This document shows, piece after piece, positions 8,265-53,740 of a stretch of 64,000 bases of DNA (the first letter of the stretch is position 1; the number at the start of each line of letters is the position of its first letter). A program made the translations under genes and the position numbers. The notes under the pieces are model-generated. The model did no database searches and was not told the DNA's origin. It saw only the letters and a program-made list of their open reading frames with translations. The stretch is from the NCBI RefSeq assembly GCF_055900595.2, contig NZ_CM148325.1. One strand, 5' to 3'.

Positions 8265-10571
8265 CTACATCCCGTAGCGTTCAGCAATAGCAGCATGCTT
8301 CTCTTCATTCGCCCCGGCTTCTTTGGCGAGACGCCACCAGCACAATGGATGTTCCCAGTCAGCGGTCAATTCGTGCAAGGTCTTATCGATATCACCTTTA
8401 GAAATTGAACGCGGCGCACTGATAACAAAGTAGAATGCAGGCAGCGGTTCAGCGCCTTCTCCTTGATGACTGTCCGTTAATGTATAGTCGTCATTACTGT
8501 TGCTCCAGTAGTACCAGTTTCGTTCACGGAGCGCCTCACGGAAAGTATTAAACTCTTCTTCACCAGGCATGACACCTTCGCAGAACCAGGACTCGCCGTA
8601 TTCGGTCGGGATAATGGTTTGCAGGCAGGCATAAAGTGGCGTGAAATTCTTCCGTTCTTCCTCATCCTCTGGTTGGGTATTCAACATTTCTGCATCGAAT
8701 ACCACAACCTCATCAACATGTTGCGGATAATCGGTGCGGTAAGTTGGCTCAATGATCCTTGCTGTTACCGGCCCAATACGTTGAGCATAGTAATAGCGGT
8801 ATTCATAATTTTCCCGGAAGCGGATGTTTAACAGCCCCCATTTTTCGTCAATAAAACCTTCACCTTCCGTAAGTTCGATTTCCAGTTCAGCAGCAATAGC
8901 ACGAACCAAATCCCATTGTTGCAGGATGCTGGCGGTCGCCATGATATCCCACTGGAGATTGCGAATATCTTCTTCACGGCTAATCATCAGTTGCTGCAAT
9001 TGTTGTAAATAATCCAGCTGTCGATCCCAGGCTTCCTGTTTTTGTGCTGCCCAGGAGCACATGCGATAAACGCCAACCCACTCACGCCCTTTTTCGTGTT
9101 GCAGCAACTGTTGCCCAATCGACTCCAGTTCACTCCAGTCTTCCTGTTGGTTGATCACTCGCGCACGGAACCACAAGGCCATATGTAGCAGCCCCGCCTG
9201 TTCATACTGCTTCGCCAGGTGCTCAATGGTTTGCAGATCGTCACGGTGGAGCAATAAATCCAACAGATCGAAGCAAAGACCATTATCTTCCTGGATGTGG
9301 CTTTCGACGTAGCGTTGCAGAAGTTCAATCGACTCATCAATCGCATTACAGGCGTTTAACGCATTGACCAGTTTGCCCAGCAATTCCGCATCATCTGGCG
9401 CGTTCAGGTAAGCGCGGCGGAATGTTTCGACGTCTTTTTCTGGATCTGGTTGCGTTTCTTCATCGCTATTTTCAGGTACTTCTACAACCGGACGAGCAAG
9501 CAACTCTGCTTCTTTGGCGGCGATTTTTTCACTCAGTTCGAGAAACTCACGATCAACCCCCAGTAACACGCGTAATTTTGGAATGTGTCGCTGGGCCAGT
9601 TTCATCGCTATTTTGGCAACCCAGACGGATTCACGCTCCAGCGCCAGGGTAATTTGCAGTTTCGCCAGATTCACCACTTTACGGTGCGCGCCGGCCTGCG
9701 AACGATGCTCCAGCATTTTTTGGATAATGCGCGCCAGCTGCCAGTTGTTTCTTTGTGGATGGCGAGGCAGTAGCGCAGTGATGATCTTGATCCAAATCCC
9801 CCACGAAAAAGGCGTAAGATCAGCCCAGCGCGGCAACTCAGCCCATACGTCTTCGTCCTGTCCACACAACGCCATGATATACAGTTTTTTCAACTGATAA
9901 CTGATACGGTCGCGCCCCCAGTAATCATTTTCTTCTGCCAGTTCATCAATCAATTTGCGTGCTTCATCGTAACGCTGCAGTTCAATCAAAATATCGGCAC
10001 GGGTATTCAATAATGCTTCAATATCATCGTCACCGGATGCTTTAACCGCGTCGATTTGCCGATCCAGGTACGCCAATGCCTCTTCTGCTCTTTTGGAATC
10101 TATCAGTGCGCTGGCATATTCGGTGGACAAACACTGAAAACAGCTCCAGGTTGCATCAATTCGCGCAATGGTTTCTTCACATACTGCCATGCGTTCATTC
10201 GCCCAGCCAGGCGCATCAATATTTTCGTAGCAGGCAGATAAATCCTGGGTAACGCAGATAGATTGCGGGCAATCTTTTGCCTCTTCCCGGTGTGCTTTTT
10301 CAAACAGCGCCACCACGTCTGGCAGCACTTTTTCGCCTTCTTCGCGGTTAGTCAGACGATGGCGCATTTCCCAGTGACCAATAAAAATCTCCAGCCAGGG
10401 ATTTTTCGCCACCTGGGTAAGCGCTTTTACTTCTGGTAATAGCGAATCGCATTTTTCCATTTGCAGGTGCATAACGCTTTCCGAATAATCATCAATAAGC
10501 TGCGGAATATACTCCTGTCCGGCATCGCGTAATTCCTGACTATATTTATTGTACCATTCCCATATATTCAT
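8265..10571 (-). CDS. Hypothetical 768-aa acidic helical protein, co-operonic partner of the HtpG-like ATPase (accessory)
   Basis: Long ORF; ATG 1 nt after the stop of the upstream gene; SD aagga; no enzyme motif recognised by eye. Confidence 0.6.
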   Translation of the reverse strand: MNIWEWYNKYSQELRDAGQEYIPQLIDDYSESVMHLQMEKCDSLLPEVKALTQVAKNPWLEIFIGHWEMRHRLTNREEGEKVLPDVVALFEKAHREEAKDCPQSICVTQDLSACYENIDAPGWANERMAVCEETIARIDATWSCFQCLSTEYASALIDSKRAEEALAYLDRQIDAVKASGDDDIEALLNTRADILIELQRYDEARKLIDELAEENDYWGRDRISYQLKKLYIMALCGQDEDVWAELPRWADLTPFSWGIWIKIITALLPRHPQRNNWQLARIIQKMLEHRSQAGAHRKVVNLAKLQITLALERESVWVAKIAMKLAQRHIPKLRVLLGVDREFLELSEKIAAKEAELLARPVVEVPENSDEETQPDPEKDVETFRRAYLNAPDDAELLGKLVNALNACNAIDESIELLQRYVESHIQEDNGLCFDLLDLLLHRDDLQTIEHLAKQYEQAGLLHMALWFRARVINQQEDWSELESIGQQLLQHEKGREWVGVYRMCSWAAQKQEAWDRQLDYLQQLQQLMISREEDIRNLQWDIMATASILQQWDLVRAIAAELEIELTEGEGFIDEKWGLLNIRFRENYEYRYYYAQRIGPVTARIIEPTYRTDYPQHVDEVVVFDAEMLNTQPEDEEERKNFTPLYACLQTIIPTEYGESWFCEGVMPGEEEFNTFREALRERNWYYWSNSNDDYTLTDSHQGEGAEPLPAFYFVISAPRSISKGDIDKTLHELTADWEHPLCWWRLAKEAGANEEKHAAIAERYGM

Positions 10572-10572
10572 T

Positions 10573-12408
10573 TTATTTTCCTTGATTAATTAAGACAGGA
10601 ATAACCTGAGTAAAATCTTCCAGTGCCTGGTGTAAATCCCACTGCTGTTCTTTATTACCGCTGGAGCACAAAATCACTTTCAGCGATTTTAATAACCGTA
10701 ATGCTGCCGCTGGCTGTTGATGGTGTTGTAATGCCGTCACCAGTTGCATGACACAGGGGTTATTAAGATTGATATACAGACTTGAAGTTTTAGTCTTTTG
10801 GATTTGCGAGGTAAATTGCCGCGCCAGCATTAACGCTGCGGTGCTGATGCGTTTATCTGCGTCATCCTGTTCGAGAATTTGTTTTAATTCTGCTTCGCGG
10901 TCTGGCGTAACCACTAACGGTAAAACGGCGGGTTCGAAGCGGGAGATAATTAATTGCTCGCCATCGCAAAGATGCTCTTCCAGATAAGCAACCTGCTCTT
11001 CGGGTAATTCTGCCAGGCTGAACAACTGCTCATTACCCGTTTGCGTACCGACTTCGATAATCCGGCAGTGATATAACAGCGCCCAACGACGTAAAAATGG
11101 CACCACCGCATAACGATCGCCACGGGCTACGGGCCGTTGCAGAATATGAAACAACATCTCTTCAAAACCGCCGTCGCGGCTTAACAGAATATGAATACTG
11201 TTATTAACGCGTAAATCCTTCGCCAGCAGCGCACCTTTTGACGTTGGCACCTGCAGGCGATCTTTGAGTAAATCACACAGACGATCATCACACAAGGCCG
11301 CACCCAGCAACGCTTCGTTGTGGCGCATTAATACACGCCGCCAGATTTCTGGCTGATTTTGTGCGAGATCGGACAAACCAGAAATCAGCGCCTCTTTTAA
11401 CGCCTCCTGCACCGCAACCCAGGTTTCGTCCCGCTGGAGATCTTCCCGGCTCGCCGTAGGCGTTAGTTTCGATGACTCAATCACGCCGCCAATAAATCCG
11501 GCCCAGGGAGGTAACAACTCACGCGCTTCATCATCCAGTAACATACCGCGCAAAAACAGCGACAGGTTACGGTTATCGCTGGTGCCGTAGGTTGCGCCAT
11601 CCTGAATCCATAAAATCCCAACCGCGTCGCTCATCCCCACGGGCACCACCGGAATGGTGCAAATCGGTTCGAAGGAGGATTCAAACTGTGCGGCAAAGGC
11701 GAGATTTTTACGCTGTACCAGCGCGCGGTGCATGGTTACGCCTTCAGGGGCAACTTCACGCCACGGTGGTTGCAGTTTATTCACCGGCTCGCGGGCATCA
11801 CCGACATAGACTGGTTCGTGCAGCAATATGCAATAGCGTGAAAGAACGCGGTTCAGCAAATTGTTACTCGCCAGATGGCTGTACTCTTCTTTGAGCGTCA
11901 GAATCACCTGCGTACCCGTTTCCGAGGACTGATGCGGCGTAACGGTATATTTTTGCCCGTCGGTAGAGTGGTATTTCCAGCTCTGATCCGGCGTTTGCCA
12001 GGATGTGGTCAACACCGTGACCTCTTTTGCCAGTACAAAGGCCGACAAAAAACCGAGGCCGAACATACCAATTAAACCGGTGTTGTCATCCTGCTGGCGC
12101 AACATTCGGGTATAACCCACGCCCACTGTAGCAAGGAAGCCGTGAATTTCGCTTTCTGTCAGACCCGCACCGGTATCAGTAATAGTGATAGTGGACTTCG
12201 CCACGTCAGCCACCACACGAATTTGGTTATCCTTTGGCGCATCGGGCTGCTCAATCCTGCGACGCACAATCGCATCATGGCCGTTCTGCACCAGCTCGCG
12301 CACGGCAACTACGGGAGTGGAGTAAAGATGCTTACTAAGCACCTCAATTAAACCGTTTAAATTAACTTCTGTAGAATATGAACTGCCAGGTAACTGTAAT
12401 GTACTCAT
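10573..12408 (-). CDS. Divergent Hsp90/HtpG-family GHKL ATPase paralogue (611 aa, accessory)
   Basis: N-terminal motifs RELVQNGHDA (cf. HtpG RELISNASDA), ITDTGAGL (cf. SDNGVGM), GMFGLGFLSAF (cf. GQFGVGFYSAF); length close to HtpG. Confidence 0.75.
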   Translation of the reverse strand: MSTLQLPGSSYSTEVNLNGLIEVLSKHLYSTPVVAVRELVQNGHDAIVRRRIEQPDAPKDNQIRVVADVAKSTITITDTGAGLTESEIHGFLATVGVGYTRMLRQQDDNTGLIGMFGLGFLSAFVLAKEVTVLTTSWQTPDQSWKYHSTDGQKYTVTPHQSSETGTQVILTLKEEYSHLASNNLLNRVLSRYCILLHEPVYVGDAREPVNKLQPPWREVAPEGVTMHRALVQRKNLAFAAQFESSFEPICTIPVVPVGMSDAVGILWIQDGATYGTSDNRNLSLFLRGMLLDDEARELLPPWAGFIGGVIESSKLTPTASREDLQRDETWVAVQEALKEALISGLSDLAQNQPEIWRRVLMRHNEALLGAALCDDRLCDLLKDRLQVPTSKGALLAKDLRVNNSIHILLSRDGGFEEMLFHILQRPVARGDRYAVVPFLRRWALLYHCRIIEVGTQTGNEQLFSLAELPEEQVAYLEEHLCDGEQLIISRFEPAVLPLVVTPDREAELKQILEQDDADKRISTAALMLARQFTSQIQKTKTSSLYINLNNPCVMQLVTALQHHQQPAAALRLLKSLKVILCSSGNKEQQWDLHQALEDFTQVIPVLINQGK

Positions 12409-12719: not shown

Positions 12720-13556
12720 TTAATTATGAATCAATCGCTGCGGATGAGTATAAACCGTTGCCCGACCCGGCTTACAAAAGCCCACCAGCGTCAAATTACA
12801 ACGCTCAGCCACTTCTACGGCAAGCGTGGTCGCGGCAGACACCGCAAACAAAATCTCGACGCCGCACATCGCTGACTTTTGCACCATTTCATAACTGGCA
12901 CGACTGGAAACCAGCACCGCACCTTGCAGCCAGCTTTCCCCTTCTTGTGACCGGCGGCCTAACAGTTTATCCAGCGCCACATGGCGACCCACGTCTTCAT
13001 GCCCGCCTACCAGTTCGCCAGATGGCAACATCCAGGCAGCGGCGTGAGTACAACCAGTCAGTTGCCCCACTGGCTGGAAATCATTGAGATGGCGTAATGC
13101 ATCATCCAGTTTGTTGAGATCAAATGTCTGAGTGAACGGCAGCGACTGCACCGGTTTACCGATGTCATTAAGTTGCTCCACGCCGCACACGCCACATCCC
13201 GTACGTCCCGCCAGTGCCCGACGACGCTCCTTCAACCCCATAAAGCGGCGGCTGGAAAGCTCAATTTGCACTTCCAGACCATTACAGGAAGGAACGACAT
13301 CCATACCGAAGATATCGCGCGGACTTTCGATAATCCCCTCGGAAAGCGAAAAACCGAGCGCAAAGTATTCAAGGTCTTTGGGCGACGCCATCATCACCAC
13401 ATGCGAAATGCCGTTGTAGACCAGCGCAACGGGAACCTCTTCCGCCACCTCATCTAACCGTGGGTGTTGTAAATCGTCACGCCGCCATAACTCAATTTGA
13501 CGAACACCTGTGACATTTGTCACATTTTTGATTTCTTTTTGCTGTGTTTTTTTCAC
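12720..13556 (-). CDS. fdhD: Formate dehydrogenase accessory sulfurtransferase FdhD (278 aa)
   Basis: Translation matches FdhD as recalled; divergent from fdoG. Confidence 0.9.
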
Positions 13557-13749: not shown

Positions 13750-16700
13750 ATGCAGGTCAGCAGAAGGCAGTTCTTTAAGATCTGCGCTGGCGGTATGGCA
13801 GGCACCACGGCAGCGGCACTGGGTTTTGCACCCAGCGTAGCACTCGCGGAAACCCGGCAGTATAAACTGCTGCGCACCCGCGAAACCCGTAATACCTGCA
13901 CCTATTGTTCCGTAGGCTGTGGGCTGTTGATGTACAGCCTCGGTGACGGAGCAAAAAACGCCAAAGCATCTATCTTCCATATCGAAGGTGACCCGGATCA
14001 CCCGGTCAACCGCGGTGCACTTTGTCCGAAAGGCGCTGGCCTGGTGGATTTCATCCACTCCGAAAGCCGTCTGAAGTTTCCGGAATACCGTGCGCCAGGT
14101 TCTGATAAATGGCAGCAAATCAGTTGGGAAGAGGCGTTTGATCGCATTGCCAAACTGATGAAAGAAGACCGCGATGCTAACTACATTGCGCAAAACGCCG
14201 AAGGCGTGACTGTTAACCGCTGGCTCTCCACCGGGATGTTGTGTGCTTCCGCGTCGAGTAACGAAACCGGCTATTTAACGCAAAAATTCTCCCGCGCGCT
14301 GGGTATGCTCGCGGTCGACAACCAGGCGCGTGTCTGACACGGACCAACGGTAGCAAGTCTTGCTCCAACATTTGGTCGCGGTGCGATGACCAACCACTGG
14401 GTCGACATCAAGAACGCCAACCTCGTCGTGGTGATGGGCGGTAACGCCGCTGAAGCACACCCGGTCGGGTTCCGCTGGGCGATGGAAGCCAAAATTCACA
14501 ACGGCGCGAAGCTGATTGTGATCGATCCTCGCTTTACGCGTACGGCGGCGGTGGCTGACTACTATGCCCCTATTCGTTCCGGTACTGACATTGCTTTCCT
14601 GTCAGGCGTATTGCTGTACCTGCTGAACAATGAAAAATTCAACCGCGAATACACCGAAGCCTATACCAACGCCAGCCTGATCGTGCGTGAGGATTACGGC
14701 TTTGAAGATGGCCTGTTCACCGGCTACGACGCGGAAAAACGCAAGTACGATAAATCCTCCTGGACCTACGAGCTGGACGAAAACGGCTTCGCCAAACGCG
14801 ATACCACGCTGCAACATCCGCGCTGCGTGTGGAACTTGCTGAAACAGCACGTTTCCCGTTATACGCCAGATGTGGTTGAAAACATCTGTGGTACGCCGAA
14901 AGACGCGTTCCTGAAAGTCTGCGAATACATCGCCGAAACCAGTGCTCACGATAAAACTGCCTCGTTCCTTTACGCGCTCGGCTGGACGCAACACTCCGTT
15001 GGTGCGCAAAACATTCGAACGATGGCGATGATCCAGCTGCTGCTCGGCAATATGGGGATGGCAGGCGGCGGCGTTAACGCCCTGCGCGGTCACTCCAACA
15101 TTCAGGGGCTGACGGACCTGGGGCTGCTGTCGCAGAGCCTGCCAGGTTACATGACGCTGCCAAGCGAGAAGCAGACCGATCTGCAAACCTACCTTGCCGC
15201 CAACACGCCGAAACCGCTGCTGGAAGGCCAGGTTAACTACTGGGGCAATTACCCGAAATTCTTCGTCTCCATGATGAAGGCCTTCTTTGGTGATAAAGCG
15301 ACGGCAGAAAACAGCTGGGGCTTTGACTGGTTGCCGAAGTGGGATAAAGGCTACGACGTCCTGCAATACTTCGAGATGATGAAAGAGGGCAAGGTCAATG
15401 GCTATATCTGCCAGGGCTTTAACCCTGTTGCCTCATTCCCGAACAAAAACAAAGTGATCGGTTGTCTGTCGAAACTGAAGTTCCTCGTCACTATCGACCC
15501 GCTGAACACTGAAACCTCTAACTTCTGGCAGAACCACGGTGAGCTGAACGAAGTGGACTCGTCGAAGATCCAGACCGAAGTGTTCCGTCTGCCATCGACC
15601 TGCTTCGCGGAAGAGAATGGTTCAATCGTTAACTCCGGTCGCTGGTTGCAGTGGCACTGGAAAGGTGCGGACGCCCCGGGGATTGCGCTGACTGATGGCG
15701 AGATCCTCTCCGGTATCTTCCTGCGCTTGCGCAAGATGTACGCCGAACAGGGTGGCGCGAACCCGGACCAGGTGCTGAACATGACCTGGAACTACGCCAT
15801 CCCGCATGAGCCGAAGTCGGAAGAAGTGGCGATGGAGAGCAACGGTAAGGCGCTGGCCGATATTACCGATCCGGCAACCGGGGCGGTTATCGTCAAGAAA
15901 GGCCAACAACTTAGCTCGTTCGCACAACTGCGCGATGACGGTACCACCTCCTGTGGCTGCTGGATTTTCGCCGGTAGCTGGACGCCAGAGGGCAACCAGA
16001 TGGCGCGCCGTGATAACGCCGATCCGTCTGGCCTCGGTAACACGCTGGGCTGGGCATGGGCATGGCCGCTTAACCGCCGCATTCTGTATAACCGCGCCTC
16101 CGCAGATCCGCAGGGTAACCCGTGGGATCCGAAGCGTCAGTTGCTGAAATGGGACGGCACCAAATGGACCGGCTGGGATATTCCGGACTACAGCGCAGCG
16201 CCTCCGGGCAGTGGCGTCGGGCCGTTTATCATGCAGCAGGAAGGCATGGGGCGTCTGTTTGCCCTCGATAAGATGGCGGAAGGTCCGTTCCCGGAACACT
16301 ACGAGCCGTTTGAAACGCCGCTGGGAACTAACCCACTGCATCCAAACGTTATCTCGAACCCGGCTGCACGTATCTTTAAAGACGACGCCGAAGCATTGGG
16401 TAAAGCCGATAAGTTCCCGTATGTCGGAACCACCTATCGTCTGACCGAGCACTTCCACTACTGGACCAAACACGCGCTGTTGAATGCGATTTTGCAGCCA
16501 GAGCAGTTTGTGGAAATCGGTGAGTCGCTGGCGAATAAACTTGGCATTGCTCAGGGCGATACCGTGAAAGTCTCCTCCAACCGTGGCTATATCAAAGCCA
16601 AAGCGGTGGTGACCAAACGTATTCGCACGCTGAAAGCGAATGGCAAAGATATCGATACCATCGGTATTCCGATTCACTGGGGCTATGAAGGTGTTGCGAA

Positions 16701-16800
16701 AAAAGGCTTTATTGCCAATACGTTAACGCCATTCGTTGGTGATGCGAACACGCAGACGCCGGAGTTTAAGTCCTTCCTTGTGAATGTGGAAAAGGTGTAA
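13750..16800 (+). CDS. fdoG: Formate dehydrogenase-O major subunit, selenocysteine-containing (1016 aa; TGA at 14335-14337 read as Sec)
   Basis: Twin-arginine signal MQVSRRQFFK; ORFs 13750-14337 and 14386-16800 are in one frame separated only by the TGA; molybdopterin oxidoreductase motifs. Confidence 0.9.
14338..14380 (+). promoter_or_regulatory. Putative SECIS stem-loop directing Sec insertion at the fdoG UGA
   Basis: Inverted repeat (agcaag/cttgct) immediately 3' of the in-frame TGA; known requirement for bacterial Sec decoding. Confidence 0.6.
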
Positions 16801-16812
16801 CGGAGACGACAT

Positions 16813-17715
16813 ATGGCTTATCAATCTCAAGATATCATTCGTCGTTCCGCGACTAACGGTCTGACCCCCGCGCCTCAGGCGCGGGACTTCCAGGAAGAAG
16901 TGGCGAAACTCATCGACGTCACCACCTGTATCGGCTGTAAAGCCTGTCAGGTGGCGTGTTCAGAGTGGAACGACATTCGCGATACCGTCGGCAATAACAT
17001 TGGGGTGTACGACAACCCCAATGATTTAAGCGCCAAATCGTGGACGGTGATGCGCTTCTCGGAAGTGGAGCAGAACGACAAACTGGAATGGCTGATCCGT
17101 AAAGACGGCTGTATGCACTGTTCCGATCCAGGCTGCCTGAAAGCGTGTCCGGCGGAAGGGGCAATTATTCAGTATGCCAACGGTATCGTCGACTTCCAGT
17201 CCGAGCAGTGCATTGGTTGCGGTTATTGCATTGCGGGCTGTCCGTTCGACATTCCGCGCCTCAACCCGGAAGACAACCGCGTTTATAAATGTACGCTGTG
17301 CGTTGACCGCGTGGTGGTTGGGCAAGAACCGGCCTGTGTGAAAACCTGCCCGACGGGTGCGATTCACTTCGGTACGAAAGAGTCGATGAAAACGCTGGCG
17401 AACGAGCGCGTGGCGGAGCTGAAAACCCGTGGTTACGACAATGCGGGTCTGTACGATCCGGCAGGCGTGGGTGGTACACACGTTATGTACGTGCTGCACC
17501 ATGCTGACAAGCCGAATCTGTATCATGGCTTGCCGGAGAACCCGGAAATCAGCGAAACCGTGAAATTCTGGAAAGGCATCTGGAAACCGCTCGCAGCTGT
17601 TGGCTTTGCGGCTACCTTCGCGGCCAGTATCTTCCACTACGTGGGTGTCGGTCCGAACCGTGCGGATGAGGAAGAGAATAATCTGCACGAAGAGAAAGAC
17701 GAGGAGCGCAAATGA
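16813..17715 (+). CDS. fdoH: Formate dehydrogenase-O iron-sulfur subunit (300 aa)
   Basis: Four CxxCxxCxxxCP ferredoxin-type clusters; C-terminal TM anchor. Confidence 0.9.
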
Positions 17716-18347
17716 AACGACGTGACACCATCGTGCGCTACACCGCGCCGGAACGTATCAACCACTGGATCACCGCCTTCTGCTTCATCCTGGCGGCGGT
17801 GAGCGGGCTGGGCTTTTTGTTCCCTTCCTTCAACTGGTTGATGCAAATCATGGGCACACCGCAGCTGGCGCGCATTCTGCACCCGTTTGTCGGCGTGGTT
17901 ATGTTTGCCTCGTTCATCATCATGTTTTTCCGTTACTGGCATCACAACCTAATCAATCGGGATGATATCTTTTGGGCGAAGAATATTCGTAAGATCGTCG
18001 TCAACGAGGAAGTAGGTGACACCGGGCGTTATAACTTCGGTCAGAAATGCGTTTTCTGGGCGGCGATTATTTTCCTGGTCCTGCTGCTGGTGAGCGGTGT
18101 GATTATCTGGCGTCCTTATTTTGCGCCTGCTTTCTCAATCCCGGTGATCCGATTCGCGTTAATGCTGCATTCATTTGCCGCAGTGGCGTTAATTGTGGTT
18201 ATCATGGTGCATATCTACGCCGCCCTTTGGGTGAAAGGCACGATTACCGCCATGGTGGAAGGATGGGTTACCAGCGCCTGGGCGAAGAAACATCACCCGC
18301 GCTGGTACCGTGAGGTCCGCAAGACAACGGAAAAGAAAGCTGAATGA
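17712..18347 (+). CDS. fdoI: Formate dehydrogenase-O cytochrome b556 subunit (211 aa)
   Basis: Four TM helices with conserved His; 4-nt overlap with fdoH. Confidence 0.9.
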
Positions 18348-19273
18348 GTATTCGCATAATCCCGCAAGATGAGCTGGGTTCGAGCGAGAAACGTACGGCG
18401 GATATGATTCCGCCGTTATTGTTCCCTCGGCTCAAGAATTTATACAACCGCCGCGCCGAGCGTCTGCGCGAGCTGGCAGAAAATAATCCGCTGGGTGATT
18501 ATCTGCGCTTTGCTGCGCTTATCGCCCACGCCCAGGAAGTGGTGCTGTACGACCATCCGCTGGAGATGGATCTGACCGCGCGCATTAAAGAAGCCAGCGC
18601 ACAGGGCAAGCCACCGCTGGATATTCACGTTTTGCCGCGTGATAAGCACTGGCAAAAGCTGCTGATGGCAATGATTGCTGAGCTGAAACCTGAAATGAGC
18701 GGCCCGGCGCTGGCAGTGATTGAGAATCTGGAGAAGGCATCAAGCCAGGAGCTGGAAGATATGGCCAGCGCGCTGTTCGCCTCTGATTTCTCGTCCGTCA
18801 GCAGCGATAAAGCGCCGTTTATCTGGGCTGCACTGTCACTCTACTGGGCGCAGATGGCCAATCTGATCCCGGGCAAAGCCCGCGCTGAATACGGCGAACA
18901 ACGTCAATATTGCCCGGTTTGTGGTTCTATGCCGGTGTCCAGTATGGTGCAAATTGGCACCACTCAGGGTCTGCGTTACCTGCACTGCAACCTGTGTGAA
19001 ACTGAATGGCACGTAGTGCGCGTAAAATGCAGCAACTGTGAACAGAGCGGCAAACTGCATTACTGGTCGCTGGATGACGAACAGGCCGCGATTAAAGCCG
19101 AAAGCTGCGATGACTGTGGCACTTACCTGAAGATTCTTTATCAGGAAAAAGAACCGAAAGTTGAAGCCGTGGCAGATGACCTCGCCTCTCTGGTACTGGA
19201 TGCGCGAATGGAGCAAGAGGGCTATGCCCGTAGTTCCATCAACCCGTTCCTGTTTCCGGGTGAAGGGGAGTAA
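18344..19273 (+). CDS. fdhE: Formate dehydrogenase formation protein FdhE (309 aa)
   Basis: Paired CxxC motifs ([27 protein letters not shown]); 4-nt overlap with fdoI. Confidence 0.9.
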
Positions 19274-19455: not shown

Positions 19456-19554
19456 GCCTGATGCGCTGCGCTTATCAGGCCTACCAATAAACTGCAATAT
19501 GTTGAATTTGCACGACTTTGTAGGCAGGATAAGGCGTTCACGCCGCATCCGGCA
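19456..19554. repeat. REP/BIME palindromic elements
   Basis: gcctgatgcgctgcgcttatcaggcctac and tgtaggcaggataaggcgttcacgccgcatccggca. Confidence 0.7.
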
Positions 19555-39025: not shown

Positions 39026-39874
39026 ATGGAAAAGAAATTTTTTATGGATTGGGATAATGAAATCCCGCAAGAAGAGTTTATTAACAATATTTTAGCCGAT
39101 GAAGACCTGCCTAAAATCCGCTCTCTGATTATTGGTCGTTGGGGGGAGTGCTGGGATGAGGAAAGTTGCCAACCAATAATCGACATGTTTGTTGAACATG
39201 CCGAACGCTTTGCTCATCTCGAATCCCTATTTATCGGCGATATGGAAAGCGAAGAGTGTGAAATTTCGTGGATAAAACAAGGGGATTATTCTCGTCTGTA
39301 TGCTGCGCTGCCGAACCTCAAAAAGCTGACAATTAAAGGTACTCAGGGCCTGGAACTGGGAGAAATCGCCCATGACAAACTGGAGCATCTGGAAATTATC
39401 TCTGGCGGTACGCCGTGTGACGTGTTCGCCTCATTGCAAAATGCCCAACTGCCTGCGTTAAAAACACTTATCGTTTATATTGGCGTTGAGAATTATGGTT
39501 TTGATGCATCGCTGGATATCGTAATGAAGCTGGCGTCGAAATCCCTCTTCCCGAGCCTGACGCATCTTGGCCTGGTGAACAGCGAAGAGCAAAACGAAAT
39601 CGTCCGCCGCGTGCTGGAAAGCGACATTCTGCCGCAACTGGAAGTGCTGGCACTCTCCTGCGGTACGCTTACCGACGAAGGTGCAGAGCATCTTCTCAAA
39701 CATGCCGATCGCCTTAGCCATCTGAAACTGCTGGATTTGTACCATCATTACCTGACAGAAGAGATGCAGAAAAAACTGCAAAAAACACTGACATGTACTC
39801 TCGAATTATCAGAAGCGCTAACGCCTGAAGTCTATGATGACGAAATTTATATGCATGCGATGTATACCGAATAA
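39026..39874 (+). CDS. Cytoplasmic repeat-rich helical protein, LRR-like (282 aa); first gene of accessory six-gene operon
   Basis: Repeated L-x-x-L-x-L segments; no signal peptide; SD aagga; I believe it corresponds to an uncharacterised Salmonella 'STM4015'-type family (unverified). Confidence 0.55.
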   Translation: MEKKFFMDWDNEIPQEEFINNILADEDLPKIRSLIIGRWGECWDEESCQPIIDMFVEHAERFAHLESLFIGDMESEECEISWIKQGDYSRLYAALPNLKKLTIKGTQGLELGEIAHDKLEHLEIISGGTPCDVFASLQNAQLPALKTLIVYIGVENYGFDASLDIVMKLASKSLFPSLTHLGLVNSEEQNEIVRRVLESDILPQLEVLALSCGTLTDEGAEHLLKHADRLSHLKLLDLYHHYLTEEMQKKLQKTLTCTLELSEALTPEVYDDEIYMHAMYTE

Positions 39875-39934
39875 ATGACATTTATTGGGAGAGAGTCATC
39901 TCTCCCATTATTTATCACAGAAAAGGAATTCTTC

Positions 39935-40921
39935 GTGATTACGCTAATTGGTCATCCTGAAAGCAAACGCACATTTTATTTTTGCCAGGCAGCGTCACGC
40001 TTACAGGAACATATCAACGTAGTGAGCTATGATCAAGCACTTACCCTGCTCTTAAATAAAGGCATGGTAAAAATCGATCCCCCCTTACATCAGGAAACAG
40101 ATATTCGCTTAATTAATACGGTTAGCCAAAACTATATTACTTTTTTACAAAAAATGGCTACCAGAAGGGAGATCCGTTTTATTAACTCACCAGAAGGTAT
40201 TATTCATCTTCTGGATAAACGCCACTGTAAGCAACGATTAGTCGAACACGCGATCCCGACACCGCCAATATTAGCGGATGATATCCGTAGCTACGATCAA
40301 CTGATCGCCTGTATGCGCAGCGAAAAGGTTTATCGCGTGTTTATTAAGCCGAATTTCGGATCAGGGGCCGCCGGGGTGCTGGCTTTGAGTCTACATCCCG
40401 GCGATAACCGTCAGGTGCTTTATTGCGCCATCCAGGTTGCAGGTGACAGGCTGGTGAACAGTAAACATATTATCCGCTATGAAAACAGCGGTGATATTAC
40501 GTTGATTGTGAATGCTATTTTACAACAAGACAATATTATCGAACGCTGGCTGGCAAAAGCCAGAGTGGGCAATAAAAGCTACGATTTACGCATCGTGTAC
40601 GTTAATGGTGAAATCGTCTGGCGGGTTGTCAGAACATCATCACAGCCGATCACCAATTTACATTTACAAAATGAAGCTATCCGTTTTGCCGATCTTAATT
40701 TACCCGTAGAAAAAGTAGCTGAAATTGATACGCTTTGTCTCAACGCCATGACCCTCTATCCGGACGTACACATTGCCGGGCTTGACGTATTACTCACGCA
40801 AAATTTAACACCCTATATTATCGAAATTAACGGCCAGGGCGATCTTATTTATCAGGACACCTGCGAAAAAAACAAAATTTATCAACGCCAGATTCAGGTA
40901 ATGAGAGAACATCATGTATAA
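39935..40921 (+). CDS. ATP-grasp-like protein (328 aa from GTG 39935; alternative ATG 39875 would give 348 aa)
   Basis: Fold guess from RimK/glutathione-synthetase-like features (KPNFGSGAAGV glycine-rich loop, ...IIEINGQGD); SD aaggaa precedes GTG. Confidence 0.5.
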   Translation: MITLIGHPESKRTFYFCQAASRLQEHINVVSYDQALTLLLNKGMVKIDPPLHQETDIRLINTVSQNYITFLQKMATRREIRFINSPEGIIHLLDKRHCKQRLVEHAIPTPPILADDIRSYDQLIACMRSEKVYRVFIKPNFGSGAAGVLALSLHPGDNRQVLYCAIQVAGDRLVNSKHIIRYENSGDITLIVNAILQQDNIIERWLAKARVGNKSYDLRIVYVNGEIVWRVVRTSSQPITNLHLQNEAIRFADLNLPVEKVAEIDTLCLNAMTLYPDVHIAGLDVLLTQNLTPYIIEINGQGDLIYQDTCEKNKIYQRQIQVMREHHV

Positions 40922-41786
40922 CGTAACAGACGAAGTACCGGAAAATACCCGCACGGCAATCCATTCCTGCGATGGCGAAATCAATCTGAATGATTTAATT
41001 GCCAGGGAAGCCAATATCCTGTTTGTGGTGCTTGATTCCCTGCGTTTTGATATTGCGTTTCAGGAACAAGAGGCGGGAAATACACCAAATATTAACCGCT
41101 ATGGTCGCTGGATAAAGTGTGAAGCCGCTGGCAATTTTACCTGGCCTTCGCATCATTCGATGTTCTCTGGTTTTATGCCTAAGCCGCTGGAAGCTGCACC
41201 TGGTCATTCAATGCTCTTTTTCCCGAAAGATATTGGTTTAGGTCGTTTAGGGCCAAAAAATGCGTTCGCGTTCAGCGAAGAGACGTGGATTAAAGGGCTG
41301 GAAAACAAAGGTTACCGCACTATCTGCGTGGGTGGCGTCTCCTTTTTTAATAACCGCTCAGGGATGGGAAAAGTGTTCCCGGCGATGTTTAAAGAGAGTT
41401 ACTGGTATCCTAATTTCTCCTGCACGGTGAAAGAGAGCATGGATAATCAGCTCACCTTAATTAACAAAAAGGTGAACGCTGAACAGCCGCTGATGATGTA
41501 TATCAATATCGACACCATTCATTATCCGAATCATTTTTATATTGAAAATGCCAAACCTGGCGATACGGTAGAAACTCACGCCGCTGCCCTGCATTATATT
41601 GATGCCAGAATCGAAAAACTTTTCGATATCTTTCGGCAAACCGGGCGGGAGACGTTAGTTATTCTCTGTTCCGATCATGGCACCTGCTACGGGGAAGACG
41701 GTAAATATTTCCACAGTTTTAACCATCCGATTGTGAATACCGTACCCTATTTTCACTTTGTGTTAGACGGCAAAGACCATGAATAA
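40914..41786 (+). CDS. Alkaline-phosphatase-superfamily metallohydrolase-like protein (290 aa)
   Basis: N-terminal VVLDSLRFD metal-ligand-like motif and C-terminal LCSDHG motif; 8-nt overlap with upstream gene. Confidence 0.5.
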   Translation: MYNVTDEVPENTRTAIHSCDGEINLNDLIAREANILFVVLDSLRFDIAFQEQEAGNTPNINRYGRWIKCEAAGNFTWPSHHSMFSGFMPKPLEAAPGHSMLFFPKDIGLGRLGPKNAFAFSEETWIKGLENKGYRTICVGGVSFFNNRSGMGKVFPAMFKESYWYPNFSCTVKESMDNQLTLINKKVNAEQPLMMYINIDTIHYPNHFYIENAKPGDTVETHAAALHYIDARIEKLFDIFRQTGRETLVILCSDHGTCYGEDGKYFHSFNHPIVNTVPYFHFVLDGKDHE

Positions 41787-43017
41787 TGAATCGATTTATC
41801 AGCAATATATGTACAGTTACCCGCATAAGACCGCTTATCGGGAATTAAACAATATTGCTTTTGCGGATGTGAAATCGCGTATTTACGAGCATAAAACACA
41901 TCTCTATATTCATATGCCTTTTTGCCAGAGCCGCTGCGGGTTTTGTAATCTCTTTACCTGCACGGGGGCAGACAATGCCTTTATCGACAACTACATAGAA
42001 GCAATTATTATCCAGGCCCGGCAAATGCAACTTGCGCCTGTAGACTGGGCCAGTTTTACCATTGGCGGCGGTACGCCACTACTGCTTAATACCGGGCAAC
42101 TGTCACGGTTGTTTCGCGGGGTGTTTGACGAATTACAGGTCGATGCGCAGATTTTTAAGGCAATTGAAACATCGCCTTCCGATACCACCGCCGAAAAGGT
42201 CGCGTTATTGCGCCAGCTTGCGGTAAACCGCGTCAGTATTGGCATTCAGAGTTTTAACGATCTGGAACTTGCCACATTACACCGCCGCCATAGTGCGGAA
42301 AATGCCCATCGGGCGCTGGAGCTACTGCGCAGGGGTAATTTCCCGATAATCAATATTGATATTATTTACGGTATTCCTGGTCAAACAGCCGCAAGTTTAA
42401 TGGCGTCGCTTAATCAAGCATTAGATTATCAGCCTGACGAACTGTTTCTGTACCCGCTATATAACATGCCGCGTCAGCCGGATATGTATAGCCTCTATAT
42501 TGAAGCCCGCGATCGCTTATTGCATGAAGGTTATACGCAAACGTCAATGCGCCGTTTTGTGCGGGTGAATAATGATTCGGCGGCTGAAAGTTGTGGCTTT
42601 GAAAATTCGCTGGCGCTTGGCGCGGGCGGGCGCAGTTATCTTGGCAATTTACATTACTGCACGCCGTGGTCGCAAAACCAGCCCGCATCGCGGCAAATTG
42701 TCACGGATTTTATCGCCCGGCCAGATAAGACCCAGATTCACCACGGCTATGTACTTTCACAAGCAGAAATGAAGCGGCGTTTTATTATCAAGAATCTCTT
42801 TTTCTATAAGGGGCTTTCGTTACGGGATTATCAGCACCAGTTCTTCTCTGAGGTATTAAGCGATTTTCCCCTGCTGGGCGATTTCATCAAACAAGATTAC
42901 TGCCACCAGCAGGATAATCGTATTCTGCTCACCGCGCAGGGTTTAGCGCTTTCGGACCAGCTTGGCCCGCTGTTTATCTCCCCGGAAGTTCGCAGGCTGG
43001 AGACGCATAAACGATGA
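41779..43017 (+). CDS. HemN/HemW-like radical SAM enzyme (412 aa)
   Basis: CQSRCGFCNLF (CxxxCxxC) at 41923-41946 near N-terminus; length and layout like the HemN family, which includes class C radical SAM methyltransferases. Confidence 0.65.
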   Translation: MNNESIYQQYMYSYPHKTAYRELNNIAFADVKSRIYEHKTHLYIHMPFCQSRCGFCNLFTCTGADNAFIDNYIEAIIIQARQMQLAPVDWASFTIGGGTPLLLNTGQLSRLFRGVFDELQVDAQIFKAIETSPSDTTAEKVALLRQLAVNRVSIGIQSFNDLELATLHRRHSAENAHRALELLRRGNFPIINIDIIYGIPGQTAASLMASLNQALDYQPDELFLYPLYNMPRQPDMYSLYIEARDRLLHEGYTQTSMRRFVRVNNDSAAESCGFENSLALGAGGRSYLGNLHYCTPWSQNQPASRQIVTDFIARPDKTQIHHGYVLSQAEMKRRFIIKNLFFYKGLSLRDYQHQFFSEVLSDFPLLGDFIKQDYCHQQDNRILLTAQGLALSDQLGPLFISPEVRRLETHKR

Positions 43018-43871
43018 CGCTCAAGCAGATCCAGACGCTGATTTATCGCGGCGAGATAAAGTCGTGTAATTATCGCTGTGGTTATTGCCCTTTTCATAAA
43101 CAAGACCGCAATGATAAACAGCAGGATGAAGTGGCATTATGGCGCATGGTTGAACATTTACCGGCGCAGGGTTCACCATTAAATGTATTTATTACGCCCT
43201 ACGGCGAAGCATTGCGTTATCGTTATTATATGGCGGCGATGGCGGAAATCAGCCGCTATTCCCATGTGCAGGCGGTGGGTATTCAGACCAACGCCTCTTT
43301 TAATTTATCCACCTTAGTCGCGACTTTTCAGCACTCTCAGGGCGATTTAGCAAAGCTGCGGCTGTGGTGTTCGTTTCATCCTTCCCAGGCAAGTAAAGAA
43401 GTTTTCCTTAAACAGTTACTGGCAATTAAGGACACGGGGATTACCTGTTCTGTGGGGGCCGTCGCCAGCGTAGCCGACTATGACGAATTACAGTGGTTAC
43501 GCGCGCATCTTCCTCCCGATATCTATTTCTGGCTAAACGCCAATGAGCGCGATAAAAGGCCCACCAGCGACGAAAGAAATAGCCAGTTTCAGTTGCTGGA
43601 CCCGCTTTATTATCTGGAAACCAGCCTCTGGCCTGCCAATGTCGAGTTTTGTCTGGGCGGCAAAAAGAGCGTGTTTATGAATGCTGATGGCGATCTCTTC
43701 GCCTGTAATATCAGCAAAATTAAGATTGGCAATTTATATCAACAGCAACTTTCATCTCCGTCTTGTATGTCCAGGCACTGTCACTGTTATCTGGCTTATC
43801 ACCTGCGTGAGGATATTCCGGCCCTCTCACAATTTGATGCTGAACGCTGCTTTCGGATCTTCTCGTTATGA
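43014..43871 (+). CDS. Small radical SAM enzyme (285 aa)
   Basis: CNYRCGYCPF (CxxxCxxC) at residues 18-25; additional C-terminal Cys cluster SPSCMSRHCHC; ATGA overlap with upstream gene. Confidence 0.6.
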   Translation: MTLKQIQTLIYRGEIKSCNYRCGYCPFHKQDRNDKQQDEVALWRMVEHLPAQGSPLNVFITPYGEALRYRYYMAAMAEISRYSHVQAVGIQTNASFNLSTLVATFQHSQGDLAKLRLWCSFHPSQASKEVFLKQLLAIKDTGITCSVGAVASVADYDELQWLRAHLPPDIYFWLNANERDKRPTSDERNSQFQLLDPLYYLETSLWPANVEFCLGGKKSVFMNADGDLFACNISKIKIGNLYQQQLSSPSCMSRHCHCYLAYHLREDIPALSQFDAERCFRIFSL

Positions 43872-44563
43872 TCTGGCGGTTAATCGCGCTCGATTTAGAC
43901 GGCACATTGCTGAACAGCAAGAAGATGATTTCCCCTGCGTCTGTTTCGGCACTGCAAAGCGCACAACAGGCAGGTGTGAAAATTATCCTCGCCACCGGAC
44001 GTTCGCACAGCGAAGCCCTGCCTTATTACCAACAATTGCAGTTAACCGAGCCGATGATTTGCTGTAACGGCAGCTATCTTTATCATCCGCGCCAGCGGCA
44101 AATATTGCGTCCGCTGGCGCTTGATATCCACAAGGTGGAAAGGCTACGACTCTGGTTTTCACAACAAATATTGCAGCCAAATATTTATACGTACGATGAT
44201 TTTGTTTTGCAGATTAGCCTGATACACCGCAAGGCTTCGTTATTGCGCCAGACAGAGGAATTTGCCCGACAAGAATTATCGCTGGCCTGTAGCTGGTCCT
44301 GGCATCATCAACTGGATATTACACAGGTGGGGTGTGAGAAAGGCAAAAGTCTGGCCTGGTATGCCCGACAGCAAAATATCGTGCTGGATGAAATCATCGC
44401 CTTTGGCGATAACGATAATGATGCGGGGATGCTGCGGATGGTAGGCAAAGGGATTGCGATGGGCAATGGCAGTTCGCTGGCAAAAGTCAGTGCTGACCGC
44501 GTTATTGGTCACAACAACACAGATGCTATTGCGGATTTTCTTGATGCGCAGGGTTTCAGATGA
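43868..44563 (+). CDS. HAD-superfamily (Cof-type) phosphatase (231 aa)
   Basis: Motif I LIALDLDGTLL; motif GDNDNDAGM near C-terminus; ATGA overlap with upstream gene. Confidence 0.7.
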   Translation: MIWRLIALDLDGTLLNSKKMISPASVSALQSAQQAGVKIILATGRSHSEALPYYQQLQLTEPMICCNGSYLYHPRQRQILRPLALDIHKVERLRLWFSQQILQPNIYTYDDFVLQISLIHRKASLLRQTEEFARQELSLACSWSWHHQLDITQVGCEKGKSLAWYARQQNIVLDEIIAFGDNDNDAGMLRMVGKGIAMGNGSSLAKVSADRVIGHNNTDAIADFLDAQGFR

Positions 44564-46477: not shown

Positions 46478-46628
46478 AACTTTGCCTCAGGCATTAGAAA
46501 TAGCGCGTTATTGTACACGGATTAATCGCACTACAAAACAGGATCACAAACATCCTCCGCAAACAAGTATTGCAGAGTCCCTTTGTGATCGCTTTCACGG
46601 AGCATAAAAAGGGTTATCCAAAGGTCAT

Positions 46629-46720
46629 TGCACCAATATGGTGCTTAATGTTTCCATTGAAGCACTATATTGGTGCAATATTCACATCGTGGTGCAGCCC
46701 TTTTGCACGATGGTGCGCAT
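46629..46720 (+). promoter_or_regulatory. NtrC (GlnG) enhancer sites upstream of glnA
   Basis: Repeated TGCACCA-N-TGGTGCA dyads (tgcaccaatatggtgc, gcactatattggtgcaa, tggtgcagcccttttgcacgatggtgcgca). Confidence 0.75.
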
Positions 46721-51140: not shown

Positions 51141-51245
51141 GCCGGATGCGGAGAAAGTCGTAGGCCTGATAAGACGCGACCAGCGTCGCATCAGGCATCA
51201 TGCTCAGATGCCGGATGCAGCGTAAACGCCTTATCCGGCCTACAA
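51141..51245. repeat. REP/BIME cluster
   Basis: gccggatgcgg..., taggcctgataagacgcgaccagcgtcgcatcaggca, gatgccggatgcagcgtaaacgccttatccggcctac. Confidence 0.7.
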
Positions 51246-53426: not shown

Positions 53427-53493
53427 AATGGTTCGTCTTTTAGCCGTTTTATTCAGTATAGATTTGCGGCGGAATCTAACAGAAAGCAAGCAA

Positions 53494-53740
53494 AGAAAAA
53501 AGGCGACAGATTACTCTGTCGCCTTTTTTCCTGACTCATAACCCTTAACGGGTCTTACAATCCTTGCAGGCCGCCAACACACCCTGTTTTTCCATTAGCC
53601 GGAACAATCCGTGTTGATTCCATTTCCGTTTAATTACGTCTCCGGACGTTTGTCTTCCTGACAATCCTCTGTCTTCGCCTCCTGGCGCTCCTGACCCTCA
53701 TCCTGAGTCATTGTTCCTGTTAGCGTCCTCGCTCTATGGG
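53494..53740 (-). ncRNA. csrC: CsrC small RNA (CsrA-sequestering)
   Basis: About 14 GGA triplets on the minus strand; ends in hairpin ggcgacagagtaatctgtcgcc plus U-run; position between yihI and engB. Confidence 0.8.

Follow-up and report, generated by a model that had tools for sequence, protein, structure and literature searches.

Gene content of the locus

The window, by which we mean the whole 64-kb stretch of DNA analysed here, is part of an Escherichia coli chromosome and contains a formate dehydrogenase locus with the layout fdhD <> fdoGHI-fdhE. On the plus strand, fdoG (13750 to 16800, 3051 nt) encodes the catalytic (alpha) subunit of formate dehydrogenase-O in 1016 codons, counting a putative selenocysteine (Sec) at position 196. 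The ATG at 13750, a TGA after 195 codons and the TAA at 16798-16800 are all in phase, and the continuous translation, 1016 residues long, is interrupted only by the stop at codon 196. An earlier note on this DNA had described an open reading frame track split at TGA 14335-14337, with both halves lying in one frame and together giving 1016 residues, and had named the gene fdoG; the open reading frame list and the continuous translation bear out the former statement, and a DNA identity of 98.0% to b3894 of strain MG1655 the latter, the 63 nt around the TGA being identical in both strains. The translated protein matches the NCBIfam model TIGR01553 with 1572 bits (cut-off 814.2) over residues 2-1015, a full-length family match, and aligns end-to-end with the FdnG chain 1kqf_A (1903 bits). 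Its N-terminus is almost the same as that of FdnG in 1kqf_A and reads as a twin-arginine (Tat) signal peptide, MQVSRRQFFK...VALA (13750 to 13848, plus strand), with the S-R-R-x-F-F-K motif visible in the translation; we take this segment to act as a Tat signal, a predicted role that follows established knowledge.

The remaining genes of the operon lie downstream on the same strand. They are fdoH, annotated as the Fe-S beta subunit (16813 to 17715; TIGR01582, 479 bits, cut-off 335), fdoI, for the cytochrome b556 gamma subunit (17712 to 18347; FdoI model NF007924, 453 bits, cut-off 341), and fdhE, for a formate dehydrogenase accessory protein (18344 to 19273; NF002925, 603 bits). Since the product of fdoI matches the FdoI model and falls under the cut-off of the FdnI model NF007558 (243.6 bits, cut-off 339), the operon is fdo rather than fdn. 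The divergently transcribed fdhD (12720 to 13556, minus strand; TIGR00129, 335 bits) is annotated as a sulfurtransferase for the molybdenum cofactor. The whole arrangement is syntenic with b3892-b3895 of MG1655 and is that of the FDH-O (fdo) operon. Compared with K-12 fdoG (b3894) and its selenocysteine insertion sequence (SECIS), the gene, the locus and the TGA at codon 196 are the same and no relevant difference was found, the two differing only in strain-level SNPs and in accessory genes beside the operon.

The in-frame TGA at codon 196

The TGA at 14335-14337 (plus strand), whose next base is C (UGA-C), aligns exactly with the X (Sec196) of 1kqf_A, and by this homology it would encode the molybdenum ligand. 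It also stands opposite Sec in three further solved formate dehydrogenases (1h0h_A and D. vulgaris FdhA chains), the D. vulgaris FdhA entries carrying the name 'selenocysteine-containing'. The motif QAR[VI]-U-H is shared by the fdoG site and these Sec-containing enzymes, and the peptide spanning codon 196 reads ...QARV-U-HGPTVASLAPTFGR if UGA stands for Sec. The proposal of the earlier note that this TGA encodes Sec is thus supported by its position opposite Sec196 of FdnG (1KQF) and opposite Sec in the three other solved enzymes.

The closest of these relatives is FdnG (1KQF/1KQG), a paralogue encoded at a different locus; it has Sec196 at the same residue within the identical motif VDNQARV-U-HGPTVASL, and K-12 fdoG and fdnG have TGA at the same codon. 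The periplasmic W/Mo formate dehydrogenases of Desulfovibrio (1H0H, from D. gigas, 6SDR and 8CM4) align with FdoG over their full length (860-935 bits) and share QAR[VI]-U-H with the Sec aligned, but they are more distant orthologues with tungsten and another subunit composition, and the likeness is at the protein level. FdnG, FdoG and FdhF are the three selenopolypeptides of E. coli, and FdoG has a size of 110 kDa (PMC4009273).

We regard it as almost certain that codon 196 of fdoG is read as Sec with the help of a downstream SECIS, and we infer that selenium is probably incorporated into FdoG in the strain of the window. The Sec codon and the SECIS of fdoG are already known and belong to textbook biology, so that neither is a discovery.

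Structure and covariation of the downstream hairpin

The stretch from 14332 to 14390 (plus strand) matches the bacterial SECIS family SECIS_3 of Rfam (RF01989) with 84.3 bits over model positions 1-59 of 59 (gathering threshold 63 bits, E = 1.4e-18), a result that answers the check by SECIS prediction put forward in the earlier note. Within the open reading frame, the UGA corresponds to model positions 4-6, and the first nucleotide after it opens the helix. The whole hairpin extends from 14338 to 14380 (plus strand), with a lower helix in which 14338-14347 pair with 14372-14380 in the Rfam register; the stem-loop previously noticed directly after the TGA is therefore confirmed, its proposed end at 14380 being the last paired base. 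The apical minihelix, GGU(bulge)AGCAA-GUC-UUGCUCC (14349 to 14366, plus strand), is the putative SelB-binding part. Counted from the U of the UGA, its bulged U (14351) has position 17, and the G and U of the loop (14357-14358) have positions 23 and 24. The minimal SECIS of fdhF has been described as an apical stem-loop with a bulged U17 and loop G23/U24, at a distance of about 11 nt from the UGA (PMC8659212), and the apical stem-loop of fdoG has this E. coli-type geometry.

The two elements belong, nevertheless, to different sequence families, for the fdoG hairpin was rejected as a member of SECIS_2 (RF01988, the fdhF type), where it scores 28.1 bits against a threshold of 70. Both are placed 3' of UGA-C and have the bulged U17, the loop G23/U24 and G-C pairs flanking the bulge, whereas the apical helix of fdoG is one base pair longer, its loop is GUC with 3 nt (or 5 nt) instead of GGUC, and the bulge lies above an A-U instead of a U-A pair.

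The folding energy of the fdoG hairpin (MFE -14.6 kcal/mol) was no better than chance against dinucleotide shuffles (z = -0.76), with 41 of 200 shuffled sequences folding as well. As energy does not separate the hairpin from shuffles, the case for the structure is a comparative one. We had expected the SECIS of fdnG to differ from that of fdoG by compensatory changes, which proved wrong, as the two genes are perfectly identical over 71 nt (14332 to 14402, plus strand, starting 3 nt before the TGA), and covariation had consequently to come from other taxa. None was found in three orthologues taken from 90% protein clusters (Cronobacter-like, Hafnia and Kosakonia), in which the SECIS is near-invariant.

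A codon-degenerate genome scan provided 69 distinct orthologous sequences from many Proteobacteria, in which 100% of the cells of the upper helix are paired. The pair 21-33 is GC in 41 sequences, AU in 21, GU in 6 and CG in one, and the pair 24-30 is AU in 43, CG in 17 and GC in 9. Both pairs lie at synonymous third codon positions, with double changes in 22 and 26 cells, respectively, and the observed covariation score, which is to be read with the caveat that the 69 sequences are related and were chosen by a peptide-based pattern, was reached by none of 500 shuffles. Overall pairing reaches 90% in register, compared with 27-48% in controls that have the 3' partner displaced by 1 to 3 columns. 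U17, G23 and U24 (U20, G26 and U27 of the alignment) are invariant in this set, and Thr is encoded throughout by ACG and Ser by AGU, choices that the scan pattern had not imposed. The lower helix is imperfect, with 82-85% pairing across orthologues and two alternative registers that track whether alignment column 12 has A or C. On this comparative sequence evidence, the SECIS_3 match together with the covariation places the fdoG stem-loop far beyond chance. The locus illustrates neatly how an RNA signal can sit within a coding sequence, where the embedded SECIS freezes synonymous sites and yields covariation between third codon positions.

Selenocysteine machinery and proposed mechanism

The 64-kb window contains none of selA, selB, selC and selD, nor any tRNA gene. 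We therefore looked at the near-identical genome NZ_CP098223.1, which is 15 SNPs from the first 39 kb of the window. There, selABCD, whose presence the earlier note had suggested verifying, are all intact: the tRNA-Sec gene selC at 4707533-4707627, selB/selA at 4627401-4630633 and selD at 2671051-2672094. Next to selC in NZ_CP098223.1 there are an island and a rearrangement. Of 5426 E. coli genomes, 5424 contain selC.

Following the established E. coli pathway, from which the individual steps are taken, SelD would supply selenophosphate, and SelA would convert Ser-tRNA(Sec), the tRNA being encoded by selC, into Sec-tRNA(Sec). The mRNA immediately 3' of the UGA is predicted to fold into the SECIS hairpin within the coding sequence, and its apical minihelix, which starts 11 nt past the UGA and presents U17 and G23/U24, would probably be bound by the C-terminal domain of SelB carrying GTP and Sec-tRNA(Sec). 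Tethered in this way to the ribosome when the UGA arrives in the A site, the complex would outcompete RF2. Translation would then proceed through 820 further codons to give one Tat-exported polypeptide of 1016 residues, the catalytic subunit of FDH-O, whose Sec at position 196 is expected to ligate the molybdenum of the bis-MGD cofactor.

Recoding can be inefficient, as the published ribosome densities indicate (PMC5714196), and this weighs against the explanation just given. In E. coli, under one condition, ribosome density after the fdoG UGA is about 100-fold lower than before it, and in Salmonella it falls 27-fold in MOPS medium and about 2-fold in infection-relevant media (PMC5714196). These figures fit the view that the UGA and SECIS act mainly as a regulated gate, at which most ribosomes stop and the efficiency of Sec insertion, governed by selenium supply and growth condition, tunes the output of FDH-O. 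Such a view extends Sec decoding and does not exclude it, the variation in density may be a passive result of limited selenium or SelB, and the ratios come from a single study; we consider it unlikely as the main role of the site, though deserving of some weight. Its more specific form, in which the gate is tunable by selenium or growth condition and the abundant terminated product, a 195-residue fragment with Tat signal and 4Fe-4S region, might itself be produced and have a fate of its own in the cell, is built on those published density ratios only (PMC5714196) and appears somewhat less probable again.

Nucleotide constraint around the TGA

The 71-nt run is the longest identical stretch between fdoG and fdnG, the runner-up being 37 nt, in a pair of genes with 75.3% nucleotide identity overall and 58% of synonymous codons identical gene-wide. 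Perfect identity over such a length in paralogues that are 75% identical resembles a short conversion tract, and it could be asked whether it stems from a recent gene conversion that involved both genes, and not from selection on RNA structure. This is improbable, given that the orthologues of E. coli and Hafnia show the same longest run: at 80% nucleotide identity, it covers exactly 14332-14390, the boundaries of the SECIS_3 model. Moreover, one identical 65-mer recurs in 29 of 121 scan matches, those listed spanning several genera (Yersinia, Providencia, Photorhabdus, Citrobacter, Enterobacter and others), and distant taxa alter the SECIS helix by compensatory pairs only. Gene conversion may still contribute within a genome.

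The same conservation bears on the reading of the TGA as a nonsense mutation that makes fdoG a pseudogene in the strain of the window. In its favor, the mechanical open reading frame list has a stop at the TGA, and the near-identical genome has real lesions elsewhere, namely an internal stop in yihT and a frameshift in a gene of the STM4015 family. (As nonsense sites of the window itself these two lesions were discarded, both genes being intact there.) Against it, the stop is shared by 5425 of 5426 E. coli genomes and by Proteobacteria of different classes, and is thus not strain-specific; 5432 of 5433 E. coli records carry the TGA with its 71-nt context at 99% identity or more, at 10830 places that include both paralogues; and more than 100 other genomes, besides those of Cronobacter, Hafnia and Kosakonia, have a TGA at this codon. 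Downstream of the TGA, strong constraint persists at the protein level and at synonymous sites, and fdoG bears no pseudogene flag in RefSeq. As far as sequence can tell, the conservation data refute the pseudogene reading, to which we give hardly any credence.

Annotation of the recoded gene

The earlier note had further predicted that gene callers would mis-annotate fdoG as two genes or a pseudogene. This holds for generic callers, which split it into products of 195 and 804 residues, but not for RefSeq (PGAP), which keeps one non-pseudo CDS of 3051 nt (WP_015953878.1). The label 'fdnG' given to it there is explained by TIGR01553 being the only matching equivalog model. The mechanical list gives 13750..14337 (195 aa) and 14386..16800 (804 aa) in the same frame.

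That these are two real genes, one for a 195-residue Fe-S/Tat protein and one for an 804-residue molybdopterin protein starting at ATG 14386, has a negligible probability: the fragments are called separately in many public assemblies and an annotation based on ribosome profiling predicts two open reading frames (PMC5714196), but the authors of that work blame the split on an algorithm that does not allow recoding, the intervening 48 nt encode in frame HGPTVASLAPTFGRGA, identical to residues 197-212 of the single chain 1kqf_A, one profile (TIGR01553) covers residues 2-1015, and a single FdoG polypeptide of about 110 kDa has been reported for E. coli (PMC4009273).

With the TGA read as Sec, the case matters for annotation hygiene, as an unrecognised recoded UGA puts two proteins on record in place of one. 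Fragments of this kind, with 195 or 804 residues, number in the thousands in the public protein collection. As separately called proteins, the exact fragments were found on at least 1000 contigs for the 195-residue product and on 196 contigs for the 804-residue product, and some of the former carry the wrong name 'sulfate ABC transporter substrate-binding protein'.

Identity of the gene and of the residue at the in-frame TGA

The source of the window is the Escherichia coli chromosome. Of 5426 complete E. coli genomes, 5424 covered 80% or more of a 6.4-kb query that contains the TGA, and eight records covered it at 100%; the entire 64-kb window is collinear with the reverse strand of NZ_CP098223.1 (strain Z0117EC0005; 123762-187761), with 15 mismatches across the first 39 kb and an indel near 39146 thereafter. 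By sequence comparison, the gene at 13750-16800 (+) is identified as fdoG, encoding the catalytic subunit of formate dehydrogenase-O: its DNA is 98.0% identical to MG1655 fdoG (b3894) and 75.3% to the paralogue fdnG, and its product scores 1572 bits over residues 2-1015 against the NCBIfam model TIGR01553 (formate dehydrogenase-N subunit alpha; cut-off 814). Downstream lie genes for an Fe-S beta subunit, a cytochrome b556 subunit and FdhE, with FdhD as the divergent neighbour; the cytochrome subunit passed the FdoI model (453 bits vs 341) and failed the FdnI model (243.6 vs 339).

As the earlier note had described, the ORF list splits fdoG at the TGA (14335-14337) into two pieces in a common frame, 13750..14337 (195 aa) and 14386..16800 (804 aa), and translation of 13750-16800 gives the 1016 residues it had claimed, with the sole internal stop at codon 196. 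The best match among all PDB chains was FdnG 1kqf_A (1903 bits, residues 1-1015 against 1-1014), and the TGA lies exactly opposite its non-standard residue X196, whose context (VDNQARV-X-HGPTVASL) is identical in FdoG; the proposed equivalence with a selenocysteine site is thereby borne out. The tungsten enzyme of D. gigas (1h0h_A) also carries X in the TGA column, in the context QARI-X-HS, as do the D. vulgaris FdhA chains, which their depositors named 'selenocysteine-containing'. These alignments place the in-frame UGA at the codon of the Mo ligand in a formate dehydrogenase. The TGA is codon 196 in K-12 fdoG and fdnG and codon 140 in fdhF, and the selenopolypeptides of E. coli are exactly three, FdnG, FdoG and FdhF (PMC4009273). 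The selenocysteine reading is correct, and is already known, textbook biology.

The SECIS hairpin

The 51 nt from the TGA fold at -14.6 kcal/mol with a z-score of only -0.76, and hairpin thermodynamics by themselves prove nothing. An Rfam scan confirmed the predicted stem-loop, giving a full-length match to SECIS_3 (RF01989), a model of the RNA hairpin that signals selenocysteine insertion, at 14332-14390 (+), with the hairpin directly 3' of the TGA (84.3 bits vs a gathering score of 63; E = 1.4e-18 over the whole window). The fdhF-type family SECIS_2 was rejected, at only 28.1 bits for a threshold of 70. With the U of UGA as position 1, the fdoG apical helix comprises the pairs G15-C32, G16-C31, A18-U30, G19-C29, C20-G28, A21-U27 and possibly A22-U26, with U17 bulged and a G23-U24-C25 loop. 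The minimal fdhF SECIS, which was defined by experiment, is an upper stem-loop (nt 15-31) located 11 nt from the UGA, where U17 and G23 are needed for SelB binding (review PMC8659212). In fdoG the bulged U, loop G and loop U therefore fall at the fdhF positions.

To examine this element in distant taxa, a species-level genome collection was scanned with a pattern fixing the amino acids U-H-G-P-T-V-A-[S]-L-A-P and leaving third positions free. The 121 matches, from Pseudomonas, Pasteurellaceae, Burkholderiales, Rhizobiales, a Geobacter relative and others, gave 69 distinct 59-mers, which are phylogenetically related and selected by peptide pattern, the pattern fixing codon positions 1 and 2 and not the covarying ones. 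The Rfam structure paired 90.1% of cells in these sequences, against 27-48% when the 3' partner was slid by 1 to 3 columns, and the observed covariation score was reached by none of 500 shuffles. Pairing in the upper helix was 100%. For the pair of alignment columns 21 and 33, the third positions of the Val and second Ala codons, we found GC 41, AU 21, GU 6 and CG 1, and for the pair 24 and 30, those of the first Ala and Leu codons, AU 43, CG 17 and GC 9. The bulged U, loop G and loop U were invariant, and the Thr codon was always ACG and the Ser codon always AGU, though the pattern permitted any third base. The lower helix was 82-85% paired, in two registers that vary with A or C at column 12, and its weakness fits the published view that the apical part alone is essential. 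The fdoG hairpin is assigned to the SECIS family, with an apical helix supported by covariation and invariant bases at the predicted SelB contacts. One identical 65-mer over the SECIS accounted for 29 of the 121 scan matches.

Conservation and alternative explanations

Only 58% of synonymous codons match between fdoG and fdnG, and their longest identical run, 71 nt (14332-14402; the runner-up is 37 nt), begins 3 nt before the TGA. Of 5433 E. coli records, 5432 contain this 71-mer with an identity of 99% or more, in a total of 10830 places (median two per genome). Orthologues drawn from protein clusters were measured against the window in the same way: the longest identical run was 59 nt in Hafnia (80% nt identity; 14332-14390, exactly the Rfam match), 83 nt in a Cronobacter-like orthologue (87.7%; 14320-14402) and 54 nt in Kosakonia (86.6%; 14314-14367).

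The conservation data and the alignments contradict three rivals: a nonsense allele, a division into two separate genes, and gene conversion as the sole cause of conservation in the fdoG/fdnG tract, although intragenomic conversion may add to purifying selection there.

Selenocysteine machinery and decoding

No sel genes or tRNA genes were found within the 64-kb window. In the near-identical NZ_CP098223.1 all four sel genes are intact, as the selenocysteine reading had anticipated: tRNA-Sec (selC) at 4707533-4707627, selB and selA at 4627401-4630633 and selD at 2671051-2672094. The tRNA-Sec sequence was found in 5424 of 5426 E. coli genomes. In the stretch 4707533-4747415 of NZ_CP098223.1, outside the window, an integrase-bearing island directly adjoins selC; beyond it, ~30 kb from selC, lies a setC-yicL-nlpA-yicS segment, presumably inverted relative to the K-12 gene order.

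On the established E. coli pathway, SelD, SelA and selC would supply Sec-tRNA(Sec), and SelB-GTP-Sec-tRNA(Sec) would bind the apical minihelix and, competing with RF2, deliver Sec at the UGA. The UGA and SECIS may also act as a regulatory 'gate', an addition to selenocysteine decoding and not an alternative to it; in ribosome profiling, density after the fdoG UGA is ~100-fold lower in E. coli, and in Salmonella the ratios vary with condition (PMC5714196).

Annotation of fdoG

The expectation that gene callers would mis-annotate fdoG holds for generic callers, which split it, but not for RefSeq, which keeps a single 3051-nt CDS, here and in MG1655, with no pseudogene flag. The exact 195-aa fragment is recorded on at least 1000 contigs (cluster of 3382 members) and the exact 804-aa fragment on 196 (cluster of 6687); a 195 + 804 split also stands in the gene calls of three contigs that were retrieved, and a ribosome-profiling annotator split the gene as well (PMC5714196). 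GenBank/UniRef entries for 195-aa FdoG N-terminal fragments of Cronobacter malonaticus and Hafnia alvei bear the name 'sulfate ABC transporter substrate-binding protein', a misannotation of the Sec-truncated product that has been propagated. RefSeq/PGAP names fdoG in E. coli genomes 'fdnG, formate dehydrogenase-N subunit alpha', evidently for want of any matching equivalog other than TIGR01553, and each genome therefore has two genes called fdnG; the adjacent fdoH and fdoI are named correctly.

Other features of the window

Between fdhD and yiiG, a two-gene accessory insert (8265-12408, -) encodes a 610-aa HSP90/GHKL-type ATPase (Pfam HATPase_c_3 plus an HSP90 middle-domain match) followed by a 767-aa TPR protein, named 'ATP-binding protein' and 'tetratricopeptide repeat protein' in RefSeq. 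PADLOC matched the insert only weakly, through similarity of its ATPase domain to TmtA (E = 5e-6). The insert may be a module of defence or stress type. A continuous 617-aa ORF (20978-22831, -) belongs to no family in Pfam or NCBIfam. In PGAP annotation it is broken into a 'transposase' and a 'hypothetical protein, missing C-terminus', and in other strains into two hypotheticals. Of 5426 E. coli genomes, 1061 carry 80% or more of its length, in every case as one chromosomal copy, which does not look like an active transposase.

Two genes intact in the window are flagged in NZ_CP098223.1, yihT (sulfofructosephosphate aldolase; 28994-29872, +) as 'internal stop' and an STM4015-family gene (39026-39874, +) as 'frameshifted'; the flags fall where the two sequences differ, at the mismatch at 29380 and at the indel near 39146, and mark either real lesions or assembly errors in that record. 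The STM4011-STM4015 cluster (~39026-44323, +; 143200-148736 in NZ_CP098223.1), between ompL and typA, encodes two radical SAM proteins, a hydrolase, two family-named proteins and a Cof-type HAD hydrolase, and is not known from K-12. Above their Rfam gathering scores, all on the minus strand, were ES036 (19477-19519), ES222 (46559-46666), naRNA4 (51163-51240), CsrC (53484-53737) and Spot 42 (54766-54884), known small RNAs that are ordinary for the region.
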